Shown here in pieces: positions 659 to 14,611 of a stretch of 59,397 nt of DNA (within the stretch, counting starts at the first letter, position 1; each line of letters opens with the position of its first letter). The DNA lies in contig JAWABQ010000004.1 of NCBI GenBank assembly GCA_038884575.1, positions 1 through 59,397 of the forward strand. Reading direction: 5' to 3'. This DNA is from Candidatus Woesearchaeota archaeon. Its GTDB lineage: Archaea; Nanobdellota; Nanobdellia; Woesearchaeales; ARS49. The notes beneath the pieces were generated by a model. It saw only the letters and a program-made list of their open reading frames with translations. It had not been told where the DNA came from and ran no database searches. Made by a program: the position numbers and the translations under genes.

Positions 659-1357
659 TTACTTCAGTGCAAACCCCTTAGTCCCCATCCAAATCGGCAC
701 TTCATACCCTTCTGGAACGTGCTTGAACTTCACAATGCCTTCAGAAACCAAGTCATTTATGCTCACAATTCCTGCCTTCTGGTCATCCATTCGCGGGCAG
801 GCAGTGTTGACCCAGCAGTCAATGAAGTTAAAGTCCTCCAGATGCCTGAAATCAAAAGTGTCGCAGGCAAAAATAAAGTATTCCTTGTCCCCTTTTTTCT
901 TCAACTGCAGTGCCCTTTGCAGGTTTTTCTGCCCTGGTTTTGTGCTCACAATAATCCCAACACTTTTTGCATTCAAAAACTTCAAGACAGCACCCTTCCT
1001 TGCCTTTTCATAAGCCAAAACTTCGTTCTTGTCAAGCTCCTTGAACTCGTTTGTGTAAGGATTAAAGCAAAAAACAGGCTTTTTTGACTGGATTGCGACA
1101 TTTATCGGGTGAAAAACACCACTGCCGACAAACAGGTAAGCATCAACCCTTGAAGCAAGCTTTAATGCCATTGCTGCATTGCAACCAAGCACCTGTCCGC
1201 CTGCAATTGAGCCAGGAACCTGCTTCACAATAGCCGGAATTTGGTTGGCGAACTGAATGCTTGCAACAACACCAACTTTCCTGGGCAGTTTTTTCAGCAC
1301 AGCACGAGGAATAACAACCTTTCTTGTGCTGTGCGCATGAATGAACAATGTTTTCAT
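659..1357 (-). CDS. dph2: Diphthamide biosynthesis protein Dph1/Dph2 family (short form)
   Basis: GQVLGC, FVGSGVFH, VSTKPGQ, NTACPR motifs; only 232 aa. Confidence 0.85.
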   Translation of the reverse strand: MKTLFIHAHSTRKVVIPRAVLKKLPRKVGVVASIQFANQIPAIVKQVPGSIAGGQVLGCNAAMALKLASRVDAYLFVGSGVFHPINVAIQSKKPVFCFNPYTNEFKELDKNEVLAYEKARKGAVLKFLNAKSVGIIVSTKPGQKNLQRALQLKKKGDKEYFIFACDTFDFRHLEDFNFIDCWVNTACPRMDDQKAGIVSINDLVSEGIVKFKHVPEGYEVPIWMGTKGFALK

Positions 1358-1393
1358 AAAGAAAAGTTGCAGGACACTATTTATAAACCTGTC

Positions 1394-1888
1394 TCAGGAA
1401 GACGCATTCAGGCGCACAAGTAGTGCAAGGCTTTCCTCATACTCGCTGATATCGCTCTGCGTGTACTGGTCTGGCTTTTCCCTGACGTACTTGACAAGGT
1501 TCTCGAAAAACTCCTTCCTTGCAGCCACATATCTCCTGAACGCATTTGCCGAAACAAGCTCAATTGATGCAGCGCAAAGCTCAATGTCAAGGGCATCAAT
1601 GCACCTAATCTTGTTGTCAGCGCCGTTTTCAGCATATTCCACAAACTCGTGGAATGCCCATAATTTCTTGTACGGCTCATAAACCTCATCGCTCACGCCA
1701 ATAACATATCCATCCTCTTTCTTGCCTGCGCACACATAAGCAAAGCAGGGCAGGTCTGGATTGCGCTGCTGCGGAATGTCAAAGAATTCCAGTTTCTTGC
1801 CAGCAACATTCACCTTGTTCAGGCGGTAAAACAGGTTTTTGAACATTTGGCGCGCTGTTTCAATGTTATCTTTTGAATAAACCTTCAT
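1394..1888 (-). CDS. Hypothetical protein with HExxE motif (possible metal-binding site)
   Basis: 164-aa ORF packed in a minus-strand gene run; WAFHEFVEY. Confidence 0.6.
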   Translation of the reverse strand: MKVYSKDNIETARQMFKNLFYRLNKVNVAGKKLEFFDIPQQRNPDLPCFAYVCAGKKEDGYVIGVSDEVYEPYKKLWAFHEFVEYAENGADNKIRCIDALDIELCAASIELVSANAFRRYVAARKEFFENLVKYVREKPDQYTQSDISEYEESLALLVRLNASS

Positions 1889-1894
1889 AGGATA

Positions 1895-2665
1895 TTATTC
1901 CTTTCTTCCGTTTATAAATGTTCTTGCCCACAATTCCCTTACTGCATAATCAGCAAGAGGCTTCAAATTCACAATGTCCTCCTCATTATACCTGATCAGC
2001 GTGTTCAAATAATCAGTATCCTTTGTTGCCCTGAACTGCTCCCACAAATAAACAGCGTCACTTCCGGAAACACCCTCAACATCATCAGCCCTCTTTATTC
2101 CGCGCTGTTTTTCAATCGCCTTAAGTCCGCCAGTCAGGCCAATGCGCGAGCAGACATGCCGCAAGTCAATGTGCGGCTTGTGCAGGCGCAGCCCAAAAAA
2201 GCGCTCAATCACAGGCAAATCAAAACTGCTGCCGTTGAAAGTCACAACCATTTTTGCCTTTTGCAACTCCCTCTCAATAAGGCTCCTGTCAAGGTTGTAT
2301 CCACGGATAAAAGTTTTTGTGTCATTGCCATCATACAGCCCAACCACGGTAATGCTCCCATAATAACCATTTGTTTCAATGTCAAGAAAAACAGCATCAT
2401 CCCTCAAATGGTCATACAAGCGCCAATGCTCTGATGAAGGAATGCTTTTTGACAAATAATTCAGGTTCTCATTCCACAACTCATTCTTGAACTCGTGAAT
2501 CTTGGCATTAGCCTGCTCTTTTCTCCCTGCAGAAAAGCCCTTTATGCTTTTTGCCTCAACAAAAGAATTCCAGTCATGCACTCCCTGAGCCCAGATTTTC
2601 TGCTCTGTTGCCAGTCTCACTTTGGGCAAAAAAAGAAACGTGTTGCGAAGCATAACAGCCAGCAA
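1895..2665 (-). CDS. YprB/RNase_H_2-like DEDD 3'-5' exonuclease
   Basis: FLDIET, TFNGSSFDLP, HIDL, GGLKAIE, YNEED motifs. Confidence 0.88.
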   Translation of the reverse strand: MLAVMLRNTFLFLPKVRLATEQKIWAQGVHDWNSFVEAKSIKGFSAGRKEQANAKIHEFKNELWNENLNYLSKSIPSSEHWRLYDHLRDDAVFLDIETNGYYGSITVVGLYDGNDTKTFIRGYNLDRSLIERELQKAKMVVTFNGSSFDLPVIERFFGLRLHKPHIDLRHVCSRIGLTGGLKAIEKQRGIKRADDVEGVSGSDAVYLWEQFRATKDTDYLNTLIRYNEEDIVNLKPLADYAVRELWARTFINGRKE

Positions 2666-2715
2666 TACCCTGCCTGCTTAAAAAATCTCAGTATCCCTGT
2701 CCAGTGACCAGTGGC

Positions 2716-3249
2716 TTATTCCCGTTCTGGCGCAGAATCCTGCTTTTTCTCTTCCTTTTCAGGCTCTTTCCTCTTGTAATCATCCCTGAGGAACTGCGGC
2801 TGATAATACTCGCGATGCCTTATTTCCCCAGGAGCCCTTATCCCACAGTCAGGAACCCTTGACCTGTCGCCTGAAATAAAAGAAAGCCCGAACGCAAGAC
2901 CCAATGCGCAGACAGGGACAAGCCAGGAAAAACTTTTTTCGCGCTCAGGCATTTTTTCCTCTGCAAGCTGGGCAAGGCTCTTTGTTGCACTATCATCCAT
3001 TCCAAGCCTTGCGCGCTCCTCAGCAAGAGTCAATGCCTCAAGAATGTCATACTCCCTGCCTGCATAAACGCAATCGCGGGATGCTTGCGGGTTGTTCTTC
3101 AGCTTTGCATAATCAAGCATCAGCATAACATGCGCCTTGTCAGCGCAAATTAGTCCATGACCAACATCAGAAAGAAGGGTCTTGTACTTCCTTTCAAATT
3201 CCAGCTCCTGCCTCTCAATATCTGAATACGGCTGTTCCATTATCTTCAC
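2716..3249 (-). CDS. Hypothetical single-pass membrane protein
   Basis: 177-aa ORF with hydrophobic WLVPVCALGLAFGLSFI segment; GGGGTGA SD-like site upstream. Confidence 0.6.
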   Translation of the reverse strand: MKIMEQPYSDIERQELEFERKYKTLLSDVGHGLICADKAHVMLMLDYAKLKNNPQASRDCVYAGREYDILEALTLAEERARLGMDDSATKSLAQLAEEKMPEREKSFSWLVPVCALGLAFGLSFISGDRSRVPDCGIRAPGEIRHREYYQPQFLRDDYKRKEPEKEEKKQDSAPERE

Positions 3250-5433: not shown

Positions 5434-8283
5434 ATGGGGTTGACGACCAACAGCGATTCTGCAAAGGCAGTTGAGGACTTGTTTTCATCTGAGATTGAAT
5501 TTAATGACAAGCGGCTGAAAATAAGCAGGCGCTTCACCAGACCAGGAGTGCACCCTTTTGATGAGCTTGAGTACGAAAAGCGCTCCTCTGTCATTGCAGA
5601 GCCTGACGGCAAGGTCGTATTCAAGCTTGAAGGCGCTGAAATCCCAAAAAACTGGTCCCAACTTGCAACAGACATAGTGGTATCAAAATACTTCAGAAAG
5701 GCCGGAGTGCCTGGAACAGGGCACGAAACAAGCGTAAGGCAGGTCATCCACAGAATTACAAACACAATACGCCTTGCAGGGGAGTCAATGGGCTACTTCC
5801 AGACAGCAGAAGACGCAGACACTTTTGAAATGGAGCTCGCGCACATCCTAATCAACCAGAAAGGGGCGTTTAACTCGCCAGTATGGTTCAACTGCGGGCT
5901 TTACCACCAGTACGGAATCTCAGGAACAGGCGGAAACTGGTACTGGGACTTTGACAGCCAGAGCATCCAGAAGACATCAGGGGCATATGCCAGACCGCAA
6001 TGCTCTGCGTGCTTCATCCAGTCAATACAGGACGACCTCATGAGCATCTTTGACCTTGTCAAGAGCGAGGCAAGGCTGTTCAAGTACGGCTCTGGCTCAG
6101 GCACAAACTTCTCCGCATTAAGGAGCAAGTACGAAAAGCTCGCAGGCGGAGGAACAAGCTCGGGCCTAATGACCTTTTTAGCAGTATTTGACCGCGCAGC
6201 AGGCTCGATGAAGTCAGGGGGGACAACAAGAAGGGCAGCAAAAATGGTGTGCCTTGACCTTGACCACCCTGAAATAATTGACTTCATAAACTGGAAAGTC
6301 AATGAGGAAAAGAAAGTCAAGGTATTGGTCGCAGCAGGATACCCGGCAGACTTCAACGGTGAGGCATACCAGACAGTCGCGGGCCAGAACTCAAACAACT
6401 CAGTAAGGGTTCCTGACGAGTTCATGCAGGCATACCTCACAGGCGGAAAGTGGAAGACAAGGTTCCGCACAACAGGCGAAGTCCACAAGGAATATGATGC
6501 GAGGGATATGATGCGGCAGATAGCGCAGGCAGCATGGGCGTGCGCAGACCCGGGAATCCAGTTTGACACAATAATAAACGACTGGCACACCTGCCCGAAC
6601 ACAGACAGGATAAAGGCAAGCAACCCGTGCAGCGAGTACATGTTCCTTGACGACTCATCCTGCAACCTTGCAAGCATAAACCTCATGAAGTTCCTGAATG
6701 AGGATGGAAGCTTTGACATTGAGGGATACAGGCACGCGTGCAGGATATTGCTGATTGCGCAGGAAATACTGGTTGACTTTGCAAGCTATCCCACAAGCTC
6801 AATCGCGAAAAACACCCACGAATTCCGGGCTCTCGGGCTTGGCTACGCAAACCTTGGCACGCTGCTCATGGTAATGGGAGTACCATATGACTCTGACAAG
6901 GGAAGGGCAATTGCAGGCGCTCTCACTGCAATAATGACAGGCCACGCATACTGCGTCTCCTCTGAAATGTCTGCAGTAAAAGGGCCATTCGCAGGATTTG
7001 CAAAAAACAGGGAGCCGATGCTGCGCGTGATGAGAAAGCACAGGGATGCGGCATACAAGATAGACGTAAGGCACTGCCCGCCAGACCTGCTAAAGGCAGC
7101 AAGGGATGACTGGGACAATGCGGTGGAGCTTGGGGAAAAATACGGCTACAGGAACGCGCAGGTGACAGTGCTTGCTCCGACAGGGACAATCGGGCTGCTG
7201 ATGGACTGCGACACAACAGGGGTTGAGCCAGACTTCTCGCTCGTCAAGTACAAGAAGCTTGCAGGCGGAGGCTTCTTCAAGATAATCAACCAAAGCATCC
7301 CAAGGGCGCTGAGGATGCTCGGCTACCTTGATGATGAAATCAAGGACATACAGGCACACATACTTGAGACAGGCACTATAGAAGGCGCGCCGCACATCAA
7401 GGAGGAGCACCTTGCGGTTTTTGACTGCGCGAACAAGTGCGGCAATGGAAAGCGCTTCATAAACCCAATGGGGCACATCAGGATGATGGCAGCAATCCAG
7501 CCATTCCTCTCAGGCTCCCTTTCAAAGACAGTCAACCTGCCAAATGAGACAACAGTTGAGGACATTGAGAAAATATATGTGGACAGCTGGAAGCTCGGCT
7601 TAAAGGCAGTTGCAGTCTACCGCGACGGGTGCAAACTGTCACAGCCACTGACAGCAGGCACAAAGGAAAAGACAGAAGCACAGGCAGACAAGCCCAGGAC
7701 AGCAGACTCAAAAACACTGCCATCAAGAAGAGCAGGGCTGACAGTTGACTCTGTTGTTGCAGGAAACAGGCTGATGATACGTACAGGAGAGTTCCCAGAT
7801 GGCTCGCTTGCGGAATTCAGCATAGACATGCACAAGGAAGGCTCGCCAATGAGGGGCCTGATGAACTGCATAGCACAGGCAGTATCAATAGGGCTGCAGC
7901 ACGGAGTCCCTCTTGAGAAATTCGTTGACGCATTCACGTTCACGCGCTTTGAGCCTGCAGGAATGACCACGCACCCCAACATCAAGACAAGCACAAGCAT
8001 TGTTGACTTTGTATTCAGGGTGCTCGGACTGGAATACCTGGGCAGGACAGACCTCGTGCACGTCAAGCCAGAGGCAAAAACACCAAAGGCAGAGCCTGCA
8101 TCGCAAAAACTGCCAGCACCAAGCGCCCCAAAGCCAAGCGCACCAGCAGCTGATGCTGTAAGCGCCCACCTGAAGAGCATGTCAGCAGACGCGCCTCCCT
8201 GCCCAAGCTGCGGCCACTTCACAGTCAGAAGCGGAACCTGCTACAAGTGCGTCAACTGCGGCTCAACAACAGGATGTTCGTAA
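5434..8283 (+). CDS. nrdJ: Class II (adenosylcobalamin) ribonucleotide reductase, intact, with C-terminal TSCPD-like domain and Cys-rich Zn ribbon
   Basis: FNSPVWFN, SACF (C193), SNPCSE (N397/C399/E401), SSCNL (C410), APTGTIG, SKTVN, YRDG; tail CPSCG..GTCYKCVNCG..GCS. Confidence 0.96.
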   Translation: MGLTTNSDSAKAVEDLFSSEIEFNDKRLKISRRFTRPGVHPFDELEYEKRSSVIAEPDGKVVFKLEGAEIPKNWSQLATDIVVSKYFRKAGVPGTGHETSVRQVIHRITNTIRLAGESMGYFQTAEDADTFEMELAHILINQKGAFNSPVWFNCGLYHQYGISGTGGNWYWDFDSQSIQKTSGAYARPQCSACFIQSIQDDLMSIFDLVKSEARLFKYGSGSGTNFSALRSKYEKLAGGGTSSGLMTFLAVFDRAAGSMKSGGTTRRAAKMVCLDLDHPEIIDFINWKVNEEKKVKVLVAAGYPADFNGEAYQTVAGQNSNNSVRVPDEFMQAYLTGGKWKTRFRTTGEVHKEYDARDMMRQIAQAAWACADPGIQFDTIINDWHTCPNTDRIKASNPCSEYMFLDDSSCNLASINLMKFLNEDGSFDIEGYRHACRILLIAQEILVDFASYPTSSIAKNTHEFRALGLGYANLGTLLMVMGVPYDSDKGRAIAGALTAIMTGHAYCVSSEMSAVKGPFAGFAKNREPMLRVMRKHRDAAYKIDVRHCPPDLLKAARDDWDNAVELGEKYGYRNAQVTVLAPTGTIGLLMDCDTTGVEPDFSLVKYKKLAGGGFFKIINQSIPRALRMLGYLDDEIKDIQAHILETGTIEGAPHIKEEHLAVFDCANKCGNGKRFINPMGHIRMMAAIQPFLSGSLSKTVNLPNETTVEDIEKIYVDSWKLGLKAVAVYRDGCKLSQPLTAGTKEKTEAQADKPRTADSKTLPSRRAGLTVDSVVAGNRLMIRTGEFPDGSLAEFSIDMHKEGSPMRGLMNCIAQAVSIGLQHGVPLEKFVDAFTFTRFEPAGMTTHPNIKTSTSIVDFVFRVLGLEYLGRTDLVHVKPEAKTPKAEPASQKLPAPSAPKPSAPAADAVSAHLKSMSADAPPCPSCGHFTVRSGTCYKCVNCGSTTGCS

Positions 8284-8450
8284 AAACTTCATTAAATGAA
8301 TACTGCTAATAACATCTCCTTACAGTCGCGGTGCCAACGATAATTGAATTTCTTTCTGTGCATTGCTTGGGGCTGTTGTTTAATGAGCGTATCGCAAAGC
8401 TTAAAAATCCAGAGTTCTAGAACATCCTCGGGGGAAAATTTCAGGATATT

Positions 8451-10610
8451 ATGGCCATTCTGACAAAGATTGTAAAGAGGAACGGCAGGGTAGTTGACTT
8501 CAACCCTGAGAAAATTGCAACCGCAATCTTCAAGGCAGCGCAGGCAGTGGGCTCGCCTGACATGGGGCTTGCACAATCCCTTGCCACGAAAGTGATTGCA
8601 ACAGCAGAGTCAAGATTCGGAACCGAAAAAACCCCCTCTGTCGAGGATATGCAGGACATAGTGGAGGAAACCCTGATTTCAAGCGGGGAAGCAAAGATTG
8701 CAAAGGCATACATCCTTTACAGGCAAAAAAGAACAGAACTAAGAAACCTCAAAAAAGCAATACTGCAGGGGCAGACAGACGAAGAAGTAGACCTTTCACT
8801 GAATGCCCTTAAGGTTCTTGAGAAAAGATTCCTGAAAAAAGACGCAGACGGAAAGCTCCTTGAGACGCCCTCCCAAATGTTCAGGCGCGTCGCGGCAAAC
8901 ATAGCACAGGCAGACGCATTTTACGGCGGAGATGTTGCTGCAACAACAGAGCGCTTCTACGAAAGGATGCGCAAGCTCGAACTATTGCCAAGCACGCCGA
9001 CACTGATGAATGCAGGAACTTCAGTTCAGCAGCTGGTTGCATCATTTGTGCTGCCTGTCGAAGACTCAATAGAAAGCATTTTTGACGCGCTAAAGCACGC
9101 CGCAATGATACACAAGACAGGAGGCGGCACAGGATTCTCATTCTCAAAGCTCAGGCCAAAGCACGACATCATCGTGACAAGCCAAGGCCAGTCAACAGGA
9201 CCCACAGCATTTATGAGGCTTTTTGACGCATCAACCAACATAATAAAGGAAGGCGGGGCACAAAGGGGGGCAAACATCGGAATCCTGAGGGTAGACCACC
9301 CAGACATACTTGAATTCATCAACCTCAAGGCAGACGGCAAAAGCTTCACCAACTTCAACCTATCAGTCGGAGTCACTGACACTTTCATGGAGGCAGTGCT
9401 GAACGACAGGGAATACCAAATAATAAACCCAAGGACAAGACAGCCAGTAACGACCCTTTCTGCAAGGGGCGTGTTTGACAACATCATCGCCCTTGCCTGG
9501 CAGCGCGGAGACCCGGGCCTGATTTTCATAGACAGGATAAACCAGCACAACCCATTGCTTGCGCTTGGCGAAATAGAGGCAACAGACCCGTGCGGGGACC
9601 AGCCATTGCTGCCTTACGAGTCAGCACCGCTGGCTGCAATCAACCTGCTCTCCTGCGTCAAACAAGGAGACATGAACTGGGAAAAGCTCAAGGAACTGGT
9701 CCACGATGCAGTCCACATGCTTGACAACGTCATTGACGTGAACAAATACCCATTGCAGGAAATAGAAAGGGCAAGCAAGGCAACAAGGAAGATAGGAGTG
9801 GGCATAATGGGCTTTGCAGATACGCTTTACCACATAGGCGTGCCTTATGACTCTGAATCAGGGCTTGAATGGTGTGAAAAAATAATGAAGTTCATCAAGG
9901 AAGAGGCTGTGGCAAAAAGCATGGAGCTCGCAGAACAGCGCGGAACATTCCCCTCATGGGCTGAAAGCACGTTTTCGCAAAGGGGGCTGCCATTAAGGAA
10001 CGCAGGGCTGATAACAATCGCGCCAACAGGCACAATAAGCATGATAGCAGATGTCTCGCCGTCAATAGAGCCGAATTTCGCAATATCCTTTGTCAAGAAC
10101 GTGATGGGCGACACTGACCTCGTGTATGTCAACAAAGTCTTCTCAAAAGTCGCCAAGAAAAGGAACTTTTACTCAGACCAGCTGATAAGGGAAATTGCAG
10201 ACAAGGGCGGAATACAGCACATTCCTGAAATTCCTGATGACGTCAAAAGGGTATTTGTGACAGCACAGGAAATAATGCCTGAATGGCACATCAGGATGCA
10301 GGCAGCATTCCAAAAGCACGTTGACAACGCAATTTCCAAGACAATTAATTTCCCTGCTGATGCAAGCCTGCAGGAAGTCTCACAGGGGTTCATACTTGCA
10401 TACAAGCTCGGCTGCAAAGGGCTGACTGTTTACCGCGACAAAAGCCTTGACCAGCAGGTAATACAGGTGTCGCACGCCAAAAGGTTTGACCAGAAGGAAG
10501 AGCAGAAAGGGCAGAACCCGTTCCTGCGCTGCTCTGAATGCGGGGCCTCGCTGCAGTTCTCCCAAGGAAAAGGGCTGTGCCAGGTGTGCGGCACAGAGCT
10601 GCTCCAATGA
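8451..10610 (+). CDS. ATP-cone class II RNR paralog with remodelled active site (redox cysteines lost)
   Basis: IVKRNGRVVDFNPEKI ATP cone, PSTPTLMNAG, GGGTG, APTGTIS, AISKTIN, YRD; but VASF (S198), TDPCGD, ESAPL (A392). Confidence 0.92.
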   Translation: MAILTKIVKRNGRVVDFNPEKIATAIFKAAQAVGSPDMGLAQSLATKVIATAESRFGTEKTPSVEDMQDIVEETLISSGEAKIAKAYILYRQKRTELRNLKKAILQGQTDEEVDLSLNALKVLEKRFLKKDADGKLLETPSQMFRRVAANIAQADAFYGGDVAATTERFYERMRKLELLPSTPTLMNAGTSVQQLVASFVLPVEDSIESIFDALKHAAMIHKTGGGTGFSFSKLRPKHDIIVTSQGQSTGPTAFMRLFDASTNIIKEGGAQRGANIGILRVDHPDILEFINLKADGKSFTNFNLSVGVTDTFMEAVLNDREYQIINPRTRQPVTTLSARGVFDNIIALAWQRGDPGLIFIDRINQHNPLLALGEIEATDPCGDQPLLPYESAPLAAINLLSCVKQGDMNWEKLKELVHDAVHMLDNVIDVNKYPLQEIERASKATRKIGVGIMGFADTLYHIGVPYDSESGLEWCEKIMKFIKEEAVAKSMELAEQRGTFPSWAESTFSQRGLPLRNAGLITIAPTGTISMIADVSPSIEPNFAISFVKNVMGDTDLVYVNKVFSKVAKKRNFYSDQLIREIADKGGIQHIPEIPDDVKRVFVTAQEIMPEWHIRMQAAFQKHVDNAISKTINFPADASLQEVSQGFILAYKLGCKGLTVYRDKSLDQQVIQVSHAKRFDQKEEQKGQNPFLRCSECGASLQFSQGKGLCQVCGTELLQ

Positions 10611-11182
10611 AAATCTACACAAAAACAGGCGATGAGGGGAAAACCAGCTTTGTCGGAGGGGAAAGGGTCTCAAAAAACGACCTAAGAATAGAGGCAACAG
10701 GCACCCTTGACGAGCTAAACAGCGTGCTTGGAGTCACGCTCGGCTTTGTAACAGACGAAAAAATCCAGCAGATACTAATCAAGGCCCAGCACGACCTTTT
10801 CACGCTTGGAGCAGAGCTTTCCTGGTTCACAAGCAAGGCAAGCACAGGCACAAAGCAGCTGCCGCTAACATCACCCCAGCAGGTAAAAGAGCTGGAAAAC
10901 CACATTGACGAGCTTGACGTGCTGCTGACAGAGCCAAAGTCATTCATCCTGCCAAAAGGCACGCAGGCAAGCACTTTCCTGCATTTTGCAAGAACAGTCT
11001 GCAGGCGCGCTGAAAGGCTTATAGTCTCGCTAAGCCAGCAATACCCGCTGAATCCTGAAATAATAAAGTACATGAACAGGCTTTCTGACCTGCTGTATGT
11101 CATGGCAAGGTACGCAAACAAGGAATTTGCCGCAGGCGAACAGCAGCCAATCTACAAGTACTTCAAGAAGAACGGCGAATAA
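10607..11182 (+). CDS. pduO: PduO-type cob(I)alamin adenosyltransferase
   Basis: MKIYTKTGDEG, GTLDELNS, FILP, ARTVCRRAER, YMNRLSDLLY; ATGA overlap with upstream stop. Confidence 0.95.
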   Translation: MKIYTKTGDEGKTSFVGGERVSKNDLRIEATGTLDELNSVLGVTLGFVTDEKIQQILIKAQHDLFTLGAELSWFTSKASTGTKQLPLTSPQQVKELENHIDELDVLLTEPKSFILPKGTQASTFLHFARTVCRRAERLIVSLSQQYPLNPEIIKYMNRLSDLLYVMARYANKEFAAGEQQPIYKYFKKNGE

Positions 11183-11226: not shown

Positions 11227-11298
11227 GGGCCCCTAGTTCATCGGCAGAACGCACCCCTCGCACGGGTGAGGCGCCGGGTTCAATTCCCGGGGGGTCCA
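11227..11298 (+). tRNA. tRNA-Ala(CGC)
   Basis: Cloverleaf GGGCCCC/GGGGTCC with G3:U70, anticodon loop CTCGCAC, TTCAATT T-loop. Confidence 0.95.
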
Positions 11299-11319: not shown

Positions 11320-11393
11320 GGGCCAGTAGTTCAATCCGGCAGAACGCGCCGCTGGCAGCGGTGAGGCTCGGGGTTCAAATCCCCGCTGGTCCA
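11320..11393 (+). tRNA. tRNA-Ala(GGC)
   Basis: GGGCCAG/CTGGTCC with G3:U70, anticodon loop CTGGCAG, TTCAAAT. Confidence 0.95.
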
Positions 11394-11395
11394 TC

Positions 11396-12031
11396 ATGAA
11401 AAAAGCAGTGCTGTTTGACTTTTGGGGAACGCTTGTGCAGCAGGGCGCATATTCGCCCCTCAAGCAGACTTACAGGTTCATGCGCCCAGGAATGGTGTTT
11501 GGCGAATTTGTTGAAAAATTCGAGCGGATAGCAATGACAAAGCCGTACGACGACCAGGCAAAAATGTTCAGGGACGCGTTTGACGCATTCGGGCTCAGGG
11601 CGCCTGACTGGGTCATTGAGAAGCTCATTGGGGTATGGAACAAGAACAAGCTCCTCGCAAAGCCCTACCCTGACACAATGCAAGCCCTTGAAATGCTGAA
11701 AAGCAGGGGAATAAAGATTGCAATCGTATCAAACACCCCAAAACTGTCTGTTGACGGAATGCTTGAAAAATTCGGGTTTGACAGGCTCTTTGACGCAGTA
11801 TGCTTCTCGTACGAGACAGGCCTGCTGAAGACAGACGCTGAAATGTTTGACGTTGCCCTCGGAAAGCTTGGCGTAACCAAGGACGAGGCAATAATGGTCG
11901 GAGACAGCCTTGAGACAGACATTGCAGGCGCAGAGCACGCAGGAGTAATGGCTGTGCTGATTGACCGCAAAGGCACGCGCGAATACAAGAACAAAATAAA
12001 AAGCCTGACTGAAATCGAGAAATTCCTCTGA
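11396..12031 (+). CDS. HAD-superfamily hydrolase
   Basis: FDFWGTL, IVSN, K, MVGDSLETD motifs. Confidence 0.9.
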   Translation: MKKAVLFDFWGTLVQQGAYSPLKQTYRFMRPGMVFGEFVEKFERIAMTKPYDDQAKMFRDAFDAFGLRAPDWVIEKLIGVWNKNKLLAKPYPDTMQALEMLKSRGIKIAIVSNTPKLSVDGMLEKFGFDRLFDAVCFSYETGLLKTDAEMFDVALGKLGVTKDEAIMVGDSLETDIAGAEHAGVMAVLIDRKGTREYKNKIKSLTEIEKFL

Positions 12032-12041
12032 GGTGACAAGT

Positions 12042-12449
12042 ATGGATGACTGCATTTTCTGCAAAATCATTGCAGGGAAGATTCCTGCAATGAAAGTCTA
12101 TGAGAATGACAAAATCTTCGCATTCCTTGACATAATGCCTGTCAACCCAGGACACACGCTTGTTGTCCCAAGGGCGCACCACGCTGACCTGCTTGAGACT
12201 CCTGATGATGTGCTCAGCGACATGATAACGCGCACAAAAAAGATAGCAACAGCAGTGATGAAGGCAGTAAAAGCAGACGGGTTCAATGTCGGCATAAACA
12301 CAAAGCCAGCAGCAGGCCAGGCAGTATTCCACACCCACTTACACATAATGCCGCGCTTCAGTAATGATGGCCTCAGGCACTGGCCGCACAAAAAGCTCAG
12401 CGATGAGGAAATGAAAAAAGTGCAGGATGCAATAAAGGCAAACTTGTGA
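12042..12449 (+). CDS. HIT family nucleotide hydrolase (intact triad)
   Basis: DCIFCKII, GHTLVVP, FHTHLHIMPR; GAGGTGA SD upstream. Confidence 0.93.
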   Translation: MDDCIFCKIIAGKIPAMKVYENDKIFAFLDIMPVNPGHTLVVPRAHHADLLETPDDVLSDMITRTKKIATAVMKAVKADGFNVGINTKPAAGQAVFHTHLHIMPRFSNDGLRHWPHKKLSDEEMKKVQDAIKANL

Positions 12450-14275: not shown

Positions 14276-14611
14276 TTGGTAACCCAAATAACAGACCAGG
14301 CGCTTGAAGACAGGATTGTGTCATCAGATGCTTTTGTGTGCGTTGCTTTCCTGCAGGCTGGCGGGGAGCATGACAAGCGGTTCCTTAAAGAATATGAGGC
14401 TGCTGCTGAACGGCTGCCTGACAATATTGAGTTTTACTGGATAAACGCGACTGAAAACCCTTCCATCTCGCAGGAATGGCAGATAAGGAAGACCCCCACA
14501 ACAGTCATTTATGTTTCTTGTGAGGAGCTTGAAAGGTATGTTGGCTTCTATGATGCTGACTTTCTGGTAAAAAATATCAGTGACAGGACCAAGAAAAGGC
14601 GCTGCTATTAG
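14276..14611 (+). CDS. Thioredoxin-fold protein lacking CxxC
   Basis: VTQITDQ..VCVAF..FYWINATENPSISQEWQIRKTPT (cis-Pro loop); WCGPC position reads GGEHD; start TTG inferred. Confidence 0.7.
   Translation: MVTQITDQALEDRIVSSDAFVCVAFLQAGGEHDKRFLKEYEAAAERLPDNIEFYWINATENPSISQEWQIRKTPTTVIYVSCEELERYVGFYDADFLVKNISDRTKKRRCY

Follow-up and report, generated by a model that had tools for sequence, protein, structure and literature searches.

The 59,397-nucleotide stretch of DNA analysed here (the window, taken at its full length) comes from a Candidatus Woesearchaeota archaeon (assembly GCA_038884575.1, contig JAWABQ010000004.1). At positions 5434–11182 it carries three co-oriented genes: gene 1 and gene 2, both related to the class II ribonucleotide reductase (RNR) NrdJ, and pduO, which encodes an adenosyltransferase. 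Our main subject is gene 2, whose product keeps the radical cysteine of an RNR but has lost every cysteine of the thiol path, with a set of replacements that is fixed across its clade. The three genes are as follows.

5434–8283, + strand: gene 1, 949 residues, a complete class II RNR without an ATP cone (NrdJ, long PRK06556 type)
8451–10610, + strand: gene 2, 719 residues, a NrdJ-derived paralog with an ATP cone, lgN and barrel domains and a four-Cys zinc ribbon, without reducing cysteines
10607–11182, + strand: pduO, a PduO-type ATP:cob(I)alamin adenosyltransferase (PF01923, TIGR00636)

Pfam divides gene 2 into an ATP cone at residues 6–96 (2.7e-23), the all-alpha lgN domain and the barrel PF02867 (7.6e-126). 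Its score against TIGR02504 (663.8 bits) is above the class II RNR family cut-off of 399.95, and its score against the closer equivalog NF006417 (867.9) is under the cut-off of 961. We mapped its residues by a HMMER alignment to the NrdJ of Thermotoga maritima, structure 1xje (phmmer 4.8e-114). This dimeric class II RNR (1xje, 3o0o) is the best solved relative of gene 2 by sequence and by fold. The two proteins share the barrel, the finger loop with the radical cysteine (C381 in gene 2, C322 in T. maritima) and the APTG-T-I/V-S phosphate loop. They differ at C134, N320, E324 and C333 of the T. maritima enzyme, where gene 2 has S198, D379, D383 and A392; in loop 2, where Q becomes E and R becomes Q; in the apical loop, which reads PSTP rather than PNSP; and in the additional ATP cone and zinc ribbon of gene 2. 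The features of gene 2 lie at the following positions.

8466–8738, + strand: ATP cone (PF03477, 82.7 bits against a cut-off of 25.8), with 27 of 29 conserved columns retained
8988–8999, + strand: apical phosphate loop P-S-T-P, where P-N-S-P is usual in canonical relatives
9042–9044, + strand: S198 (codon TCA), replacing the bottom-face Cys, T. maritima C134
9144–9275, + strand: loop 1 (residues 232–252) and loop 2 (residues 265–275), with Q267E and R271Q in loop 2
9585–9599, + strand: finger loop D379-P-C381-G-D383, with the radical Cys retained, Asn changed to Asp and Glu changed to Asp
9624–9638, + strand: A392-P393-L-A-A396, replacing C-N-L-G-S (the T. maritima C333 strand)
9654–9656, + strand: C402, a Cys in 28 of 28 variants against 7% of canonical relatives
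10530–10607, + strand: C-terminal ribbon with C694, C697, C710 and C713 (proposed Zn-ligand positions)

Loops 1 and 2 are placed here by offset from what we take to be the E. coli numbering. The replacement codons are TCA for S198 and GCA for A392, and a lone sequencing error is unlikely because the change from Cys to Ser requires two base changes. An earlier note on this DNA had described gene 2 as having an ATP cone and no reducing cysteines, and this is confirmed: S198 and A392 occupy the two bottom-face positions and the tail has no shuttle cysteine. The changes of Asn and Glu to Asp, and the loss of the two shuttle cysteines, go beyond what that note had seen.

The tail is best described by comparison with the cysteine-rich zinc-finger domain (CRD) of Stackebrandtia nassauensis NrdJd, for which the cited passages of PMC5704485 (Loderer 2017) propose four cysteines as Zn ligands and two as an electron shuttle. 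Set against that scheme, gene 2 has the four Zn-position cysteines and is without equivalents of the shuttle residues C933 and C945, at whose positions it has K707 and L718/Q719. With the active-site pair and the tail pair both missing, none of the four cysteines of the thiol path is left in the protein. Most canonical relatives have Met, Phe, Val or Ile at position 402, where gene 2 has a cysteine; C402 follows the active-site strand by 10 residues and, in the predicted structure, is probably outside the pocket. That structure, an AlphaFold2 model built from a 77-row alignment (pLDDT 87.6, pTM 0.85), has as its best PDB matches the T. maritima NrdJ entries, including the adenosylcobalamin (AdoCbl) complex 3o0o (TM 0.81–0.83). 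The 77-row alignment was used instead of the 28 clade sequences alone, which gave an unusable model (mean pLDDT 53).

The replacements are not peculiar to one genome. We compared the 120 best matches to gene 2 among 5.8 billion proteins, which fall into the 28 nearest clusters (66–100% identity) and 92 others (at most 57%). Read at the five positions 198, 379, 381, 383 and 392, the nearest clusters comprise 25 with SDCDA and one each with SDCGA, SDCDS and SDCES, whereas all 92 canonical matches have CNCEC and none of these 92 has an SDCDA-type pattern. Thus the radical Cys is present in 28 of 28 variant clusters, while cysteine is at neither bottom-face position (the C134 and C333 equivalents) in any of the 28 and at both in 92 of 92. 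Position 379 is Asp throughout the variants, and position 383 is Asp in 26, Gly in one and Glu in one. The tails follow suit: every variant keeps all four Zn-position cysteines, and shuttle-position cysteines occur in none of the 28, as against 88% and 52% of the canonical matches. In a FastTree phylogeny of 93 rows, the only tree behind these statements, the 28 variants are monophyletic with a support of 100, their stem (0.25) does not exceed the branches around it in length, and the clade is nested among zinc-finger-tailed NrdJs from related archaea. A protein search with residues 368–409 for the variant motif elsewhere returned 28 candidates, 17 of them significant, all from the same clade, and a literature search found no paper on a cysteine-less, RNR-like or pseudoenzyme NrdJ of this kind. 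The fixed SDCDA-type variant is real and statistically solid.

Could gene 2 nonetheless be a superfluous copy that is decaying into a pseudogene? The genome has two other complete NrdJs, which would make it dispensable as a reductase. This explanation is contradicted by dN/dS values of 0.04–0.10, obtained despite saturation of dS across the genus; the reading frame is intact in nine of nine genomic contexts, and the replacements are fixed. Pairwise Nei–Gojobori estimates across seven genomes put gene 2 at 0.037–0.105 for the 17 pairs, out of 21, whose dS is finite. Most dS values are saturated; the two pairs that are not give 0.037 and 0.056. Constraint is equally strict for its neighbours, with 0.074–0.135 for gene 1 and 0.031–0.098 for pduO. 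We consider a decaying copy highly improbable; gene 2 is under purifying selection and, judged by its pattern of substitution, appears to be functional.

Conservation within the variant clade is unevenly distributed over the protein. Where canonical columns are conserved at 90% or more, 220 of 255 hold the same residue in the variant clade, and at 95% or more, 177 of 202 do so; eleven or more conserved columns have switched to another fixed residue. The finger loop and the next strand keep 15 of 22 conserved columns and contain five of the fixed switches (N379D, E383D, C392A, N393P and S396A), and the radical Cys and 11 further residues of the finger loop are invariant in the clade. Loop 1 keeps six of 10 conserved columns, the other four being relaxed, and contains indels. 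Loop 2 keeps seven of nine, with R271Q fixed and Q267E in 79% of the variants. The β-hairpin at 549–565 is highly conserved: at 15 of its 17 positions, at least 90% of clade members agree. In class II enzymes, a hairpin at the equivalent place is said, in the passages cited from PMC11067019, to close around cobalamin; its assignment to residues 549–565 of gene 2 is our own mapping.

The apical phosphate loop is PNSP in 87 of 92 canonical matches, but among the 28 variants it is PNTP in 15, PSTP in six, PNAP in four, PNSP in two and PATP in one. According to the passages cited from Loderer 2021 (PMC8365446), this loop comes in types for nucleoside diphosphates or triphosphates, P-N-S-P or P-A-G-R, and P-N-S-P is tied to diphosphate substrates. 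Gene 2 has an unaltered distal phosphate loop, APTGT(I/V)S. The changes in the apical loop and in loops 1 and 2 suggest that the substrate is different or more restricted and that four-way specificity control has been lost.

These features have the signature of an active site that was redesigned rather than abandoned, one in which the thiol path would have been shed and new residues fixed in the floor. Gene 2 keeps its radical loop, in contrast to RNR-like paralogs from other genera (loci L124–L127, described below), which have lost it and are truly dead. Our favoured reading, to which we give about even odds, is that gene 2 has been retooled into an AdoCbl radical enzyme that works without protein thiols. 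Its ancestor was an ordinary ATP-cone NrdJ of an nrdR-nrdJ-pduO operon. The retooling would have followed the arrival in the lineage of further complete NrdJs, namely gene 1 and, in the majority of genomes, another NrdJ with an ATP cone. The NrdJ fold, ATP cone, radical-Cys finger loop, four-Cys zinc ribbon and the β-hairpin taken to close over the cofactor were retained, while the strand beneath the substrate turned small and apolar and the loops responsible for recognising effector, base and phosphate were loosened. AdoCbl binding, radical formation, substrate and chemistry we infer as follows. AdoCbl supplied by the co-translated PduO would undergo homolysis, and the C381 thiyl radical would take a hydrogen from a bound nucleotide-like substrate. 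With D383 as the base and D379 as the acid, the 2′ substituent would then be lost. The radical could be resolved without protein thiols in either of two ways: (i) by a diffusible reductant that occupies a bottom pocket enlarged by the C-to-A, N-to-P and S-to-A changes or (ii) by a redox-neutral elimination or dehydration. Bulk synthesis of deoxynucleoside diphosphates would be left to gene 1 and to the NrdJ on contig C20 (see below). The stronger form of this proposal, that gene 2 represents a new kind of AdoCbl radical enzyme on the RNR scaffold, working without a protein thiol either as a diffusible-reductant RNR or as an ATP-cone-regulated, redox-neutral nucleotide 2′-eliminase or dehydratase, is one that we put forward as a speculative possibility.

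Mutants of E. coli class Ia R1 offer a parallel. The C225S, C462S/A and E441Q enzymes, altered at the same positions, reportedly still abstract the 3′-hydrogen and lose the 2′-OH, and are suicidal, giving 3′-keto-deoxynucleotide and furanone. Gene 2 differs from them in being natural and selected and in having further compensating changes. The same chemistry is one of the points that weigh against a retooled enzyme: the product expected when the first half-reaction runs without thiols, 3′-keto-2′-deoxynucleotide, is unstable and reportedly inactivates C225S and E441Q of E. coli. Several elements that contact the substrate (loop 1, Q267 and, in the apical loop, N181, which is Asn in 21 of 28 variants) are relaxed, not switched, and this also fits a loss of substrate binding. 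Gene 1 adjoins the variant in nine of nine contexts, and a partner role would fit this as well. The clade is narrow, with one genus, and the synteny counts drawn from it are not independent. Finally, every RNR class listed in Table 1 of PMC4390871 uses at least one bottom-face cysteine, and because all known classes do so there is no precedent for turnover without one.

The nearest thing to an electron supply of the first kind is found in the class III enzyme NrdD, which, as described in the passages cited from PMC4390871, takes electrons from a small molecule (formate) in the active site and is without the Glu and the tail shuttle. NrdD has one bottom-face Cys, a glycyl radical and a separate lineage; gene 2 has no bottom-face Cys, so the one retained cysteine that would mark class III-like use of formate is absent from it. 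The two new Asp residues would also be expected not to favour an anion such as formate.

Another possibility is that gene 2 is still an ordinary ribonucleotide reductase. Its lost cysteines would then have a substitute in cis, such as C402, or thioredoxin or small thiols would reach the active site directly. In favour of this, C402 occurs in every clade member but in few relatives, thioredoxin-fold genes exist (one at window positions 14282–14581), and the TIGR02504 score exceeds the cut-off. C402, however, is a single new cysteine in what is probably the wrong place, given its predicted position outside the pocket, and the shuttle pair of the tail is lost as well. The Asn, the Glu, loop 2 and the apical loop have changed too, and the proton- and electron-donating Cys is kept in all known classes covered by the cited part of PMC4390871. 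We therefore think it improbable that gene 2 is an ordinary reductase.

The ancestry of gene 2 can be read from its relatives, and the proposal of a retooled enzyme draws on it. The variant is found in one genus (eight of eight genomes) and in metagenomic relatives. Among 77 genomes of the family, matches of at least 76% identity to gene 2 are confined to the genus of the window, where they occur in seven of seven other genomes (in one of these, gene 2 is split across two contig ends), and in a sample of 200 further genomes from across the order no match exceeded 57% identity. These tallies include the unpublished genomes G112, G121, G132, G183, G202, G249, G266–G269 and G273 solely as variant-free. 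The host group is one genus of Woesearchaeota-type archaea, and the distribution is narrow. The closest relatives without the variant are canonical, namely the NrdJs of genomes G218 (61% identity), G245 (58%) and G244 (57%; P0031). These sister-genus proteins (loci L117–L119) have the domain order of gene 2 and the same position, with nrdR on the 5′ side and pduO on the 3′ side; they differ in having CNCEC, a six-Cys tail and no upstream gene 1-type NrdJ. Gene 2 is the positional ortholog of the canonical NrdJ in these nrdR-nrdJ-pduO operons, and its coupling to PduO is therefore inherited.

Gene 1, nrdR, gene 2 and pduO follow one another in this order in the genus and in L128, a metagenomic relative at 75% identity. 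Gene 1 and pduO are present in nine of nine contexts and nrdR in eight of nine, all of them from one genus and its close relatives, so that these counts are not independent; at least one of the contexts (L128) is a metagenome locus of the variant clade among the matches listed. The synteny on which the earlier note had wanted its proposal checked is thus present, gene 1 adjoining gene 2 in every context. That note had not seen nrdR. This gene, of about 160 residues with a Zn ribbon and an ATP cone, lies between genes 1 and 2 in the seven other genus genomes and in L128 (loci L006, L007, L008, L009, L010, L116, L121 and L128). In the window its place is taken by a gap.

8284–8450, no strand assigned: 167-bp gap, the site of nrdR in all relatives, with a 14-nt match to the nrdR 3′ end at about 8394–8407

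No nrdR was found anywhere in the genome of the window (92.6% complete), and the 167-bp gap looks like the scar of an nrdR deletion. In the relatives, a palindrome resembling an NrdR box (AACCAC, 8 bases, GTGGTT) follows a TATA-like TTTAAATA. It stands 5′ of gene 1 in L006 (2585), L008 (2547), L009 (2420), L010 (2565), L116 (11741) and L121 (4585), and 5′ of nrdR in L117 (5479) and L118 (5942). Across the whole 780-kb genome of the window there is no match to it within two mismatches. The NrdR repressor and its operator seem to have been lost together.

Gene 1 is intact by every measure applied to it. It contains the Pfam domains Ribonuc_red_2_N, barrel (3.3e-141) and TSCPD, a Pfam search found no ATP cone in it, and it scores 1308.3 bits against NF005122 (cut-off 859). 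Its catalytic residues C193, N397, C399, E401 and C410 are all present, so that Pfam, NF005122 and the residues agree with the earlier description of gene 1 as catalytically complete and cone-less. The apical loop is FNSP. The tail has six cysteines (C923, C926, C936, C939, C942 and C948) with spacings of 3, 10, 3, 3 and 6, the same spacing as in the CRD of S. nassauensis NrdJd given in the cited part of PMC5704485. In a sister genome (G251, contig C24, L208 2230–3332), gene 1 has an in-frame insertion of about 367 residues at residue 399, the radical cysteine; this is probably an intein. Gene 1 of G251 is also divided between two contig ends.

Three RNR-fold genes and adenosyltransferases of two types are encoded in the genome of the window, which measures 0.78 Mb at 92.6% completeness. 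Those outside the window lie together on contig C20 (genome G000, locus L002); the third NrdJ, like the Asn and Glu changes and nrdR, was not part of the earlier description.

937–3024, – strand: third NrdJ, complete, 695 residues, with an ATP cone, CNCEC and a short Cys-x4-Cys tail
339–860, – strand: CobA/BtuR-type adenosyltransferase, after the third NrdJ

Gene 2 is 47% identical to the C20 NrdJ and 27% identical to gene 1. We considered whether gene 2 is a recent duplicate of the C20 NrdJ and rejected this, as its identity to the sister-genus operon NrdJs is higher (57–61%) and the two belong to different clades. A C20-type NrdJ is present in seven of eight genus genomes and was not found in G251 (99% complete). 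The earlier note had named genomes with the degenerate paralog as their only RNR as a finding that would favour another reductant; the variant is the sole RNR in none of the eight.

Other genera of the family contain divergent ATP-cone RNR-like paralogs of 586–659 residues that are 30–36% identical to gene 2.

L122, 4087–6048: divergent paralog
L123, 6169–8148: divergent paralog
L124, 6171–7982: divergent paralog
L125, 5874–7685: divergent paralog
L126, 3964–5751: divergent paralog
L127, 6292–8052: divergent paralog

In four of the six (L124–L127) the radical cysteine loop has degenerated or been lost, and those at L124, L125 and L127 lie 4–5 kb from a cluster of nrdR, a gene 1-type NrdJ and pduO. 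In the protein database the L124 type amounts to three clusters, of which two are annotated as hypothetical. We considered whether a dead, cone-bearing partner generally accompanies cone-less NrdJs; given the rarity of the L124 type, such a general system is not established.

These comparisons bear on the proposal of the earlier note that genes 1 and 2 form a heteromeric RNR, in which an inert gene 2 would confer ATP/dATP control on the cone-less gene 1 through hetero-oligomers. The domain facts behind it stand: gene 1 is cone-less, and the cone of gene 2 retains 27 of 29 conserved columns. The two genes are adjacent in the same operon in nine of nine contexts, the redox path of gene 2 is wholly lost, and its loops for substrate and effector are relaxed. 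A comparable pairing occurs in other genera of the family, where an RNR-like protein with an ATP cone but no radical Cys is encoded 4–5 kb from a gene 1-type NrdJ. RNR homologs that act without catalysis as partners or in other roles are also familiar in yeast Rnr4 and the beta-herpesvirus R1 homologs, whose radical-site residues are lost and drifting. Gene 2 resembles these in its loss of catalytic residues but differs in keeping the radical Cys and a fixed alternative site. A pure regulator would need neither the radical Cys and finger loop (28 of 28), nor the fixed N-to-D and E-to-D changes, nor a near-invariant cofactor hairpin, and the active-site residues of gene 2 are fixed replacements that do not drift in the manner of the degenerate loops of L124–L127. 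The argument from complementary domains is further weakened by the complete ATP-cone NrdJ found elsewhere in seven of eight genomes and by the 27% identity of genes 1 and 2, which belong to different NrdJ lineages; we know of no precedent for a heterodimer of such distant lineages. Adjacency is weak evidence when the contexts represent one genus and its close relatives, and the dead paralog of the other genera is rare (three clusters). On balance a regulatory pseudo-subunit seems unlikely to us, though it deserves to be kept in view.

The pduO gene matches both of its family models (PF01923 at 1.5e-58; TIGR00636 178.1 bits, cut-off 108.45). Its ATG overlaps the stop codon of gene 2 as ATGA at 10607–10610, just as the earlier note had reported in tying PduO to gene 2. 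The alternative offered in that note, that gene 2 itself uses AdoCbl, fits the evidence better than the heteromer does. The PduO coupling does not single it out, however, since the canonical NrdJs of the sister genera share this arrangement. On the 3′ side of pduO are two tRNA-Ala genes, CGC (11227–11298) and GGC (11320–11393), and then genes for a HAD hydrolase and a HIT-family nucleotide hydrolase (window positions 11396–12449). In L117 and L118, too, a HAD-HIT pair is found close to the nrdR-nrdJ-pduO operon. Still further downstream in the window, after about 3 kb, comes an open reading frame with a thioredoxin fold (14282–14581).

The presence of PduO- and CobA-type adenosyltransferases in a genome (92.6% complete) where CbiB, CobS and a FecCD-type permease were not found agrees with the use of scavenged corrinoid, and the cobalamin salvage anticipated in the earlier note is upheld. 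Such dependence, together with the conservation of the cofactor hairpin, the ATP cone and the coupling to pduO, is also what one might expect if gene 2 held AdoCbl or nucleotides without turnover, as an acceptor of the PduO product, a buffer or a sensor. A binder of this kind leaves unexplained the fixed redesign of the catalytic floor to Asp, Asp, Ser, Ala and Pro and the retention of the radical Cys, and we know of no precedent for one among RNR homologs. We regard a non-catalytic role in binding as doubtful at best.

In all known RNRs the substrate lies between a thiyl radical on its upper side and, on its lower side, one or more cysteines that donate electrons and protons; gene 2 keeps the first and drops the second. 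If it is inert, it would be, to our knowledge, the first class II pseudo-subunit that carries an ATP cone for a cone-less partner. If, as in the favoured reading of a retooled AdoCbl radical enzyme, gene 2 is active, it would exemplify either a new means of supplying an RNR with electrons or a new reaction on this scaffold. In its diffusible-reductant form, it would add a new route of electron delivery to the family, in parallel to the use of formate in class III. Either way, a symbiont-type genome of 0.78 Mb invests in three RNR-fold genes and two adenosyltransferases while relying on scavenged corrinoid.

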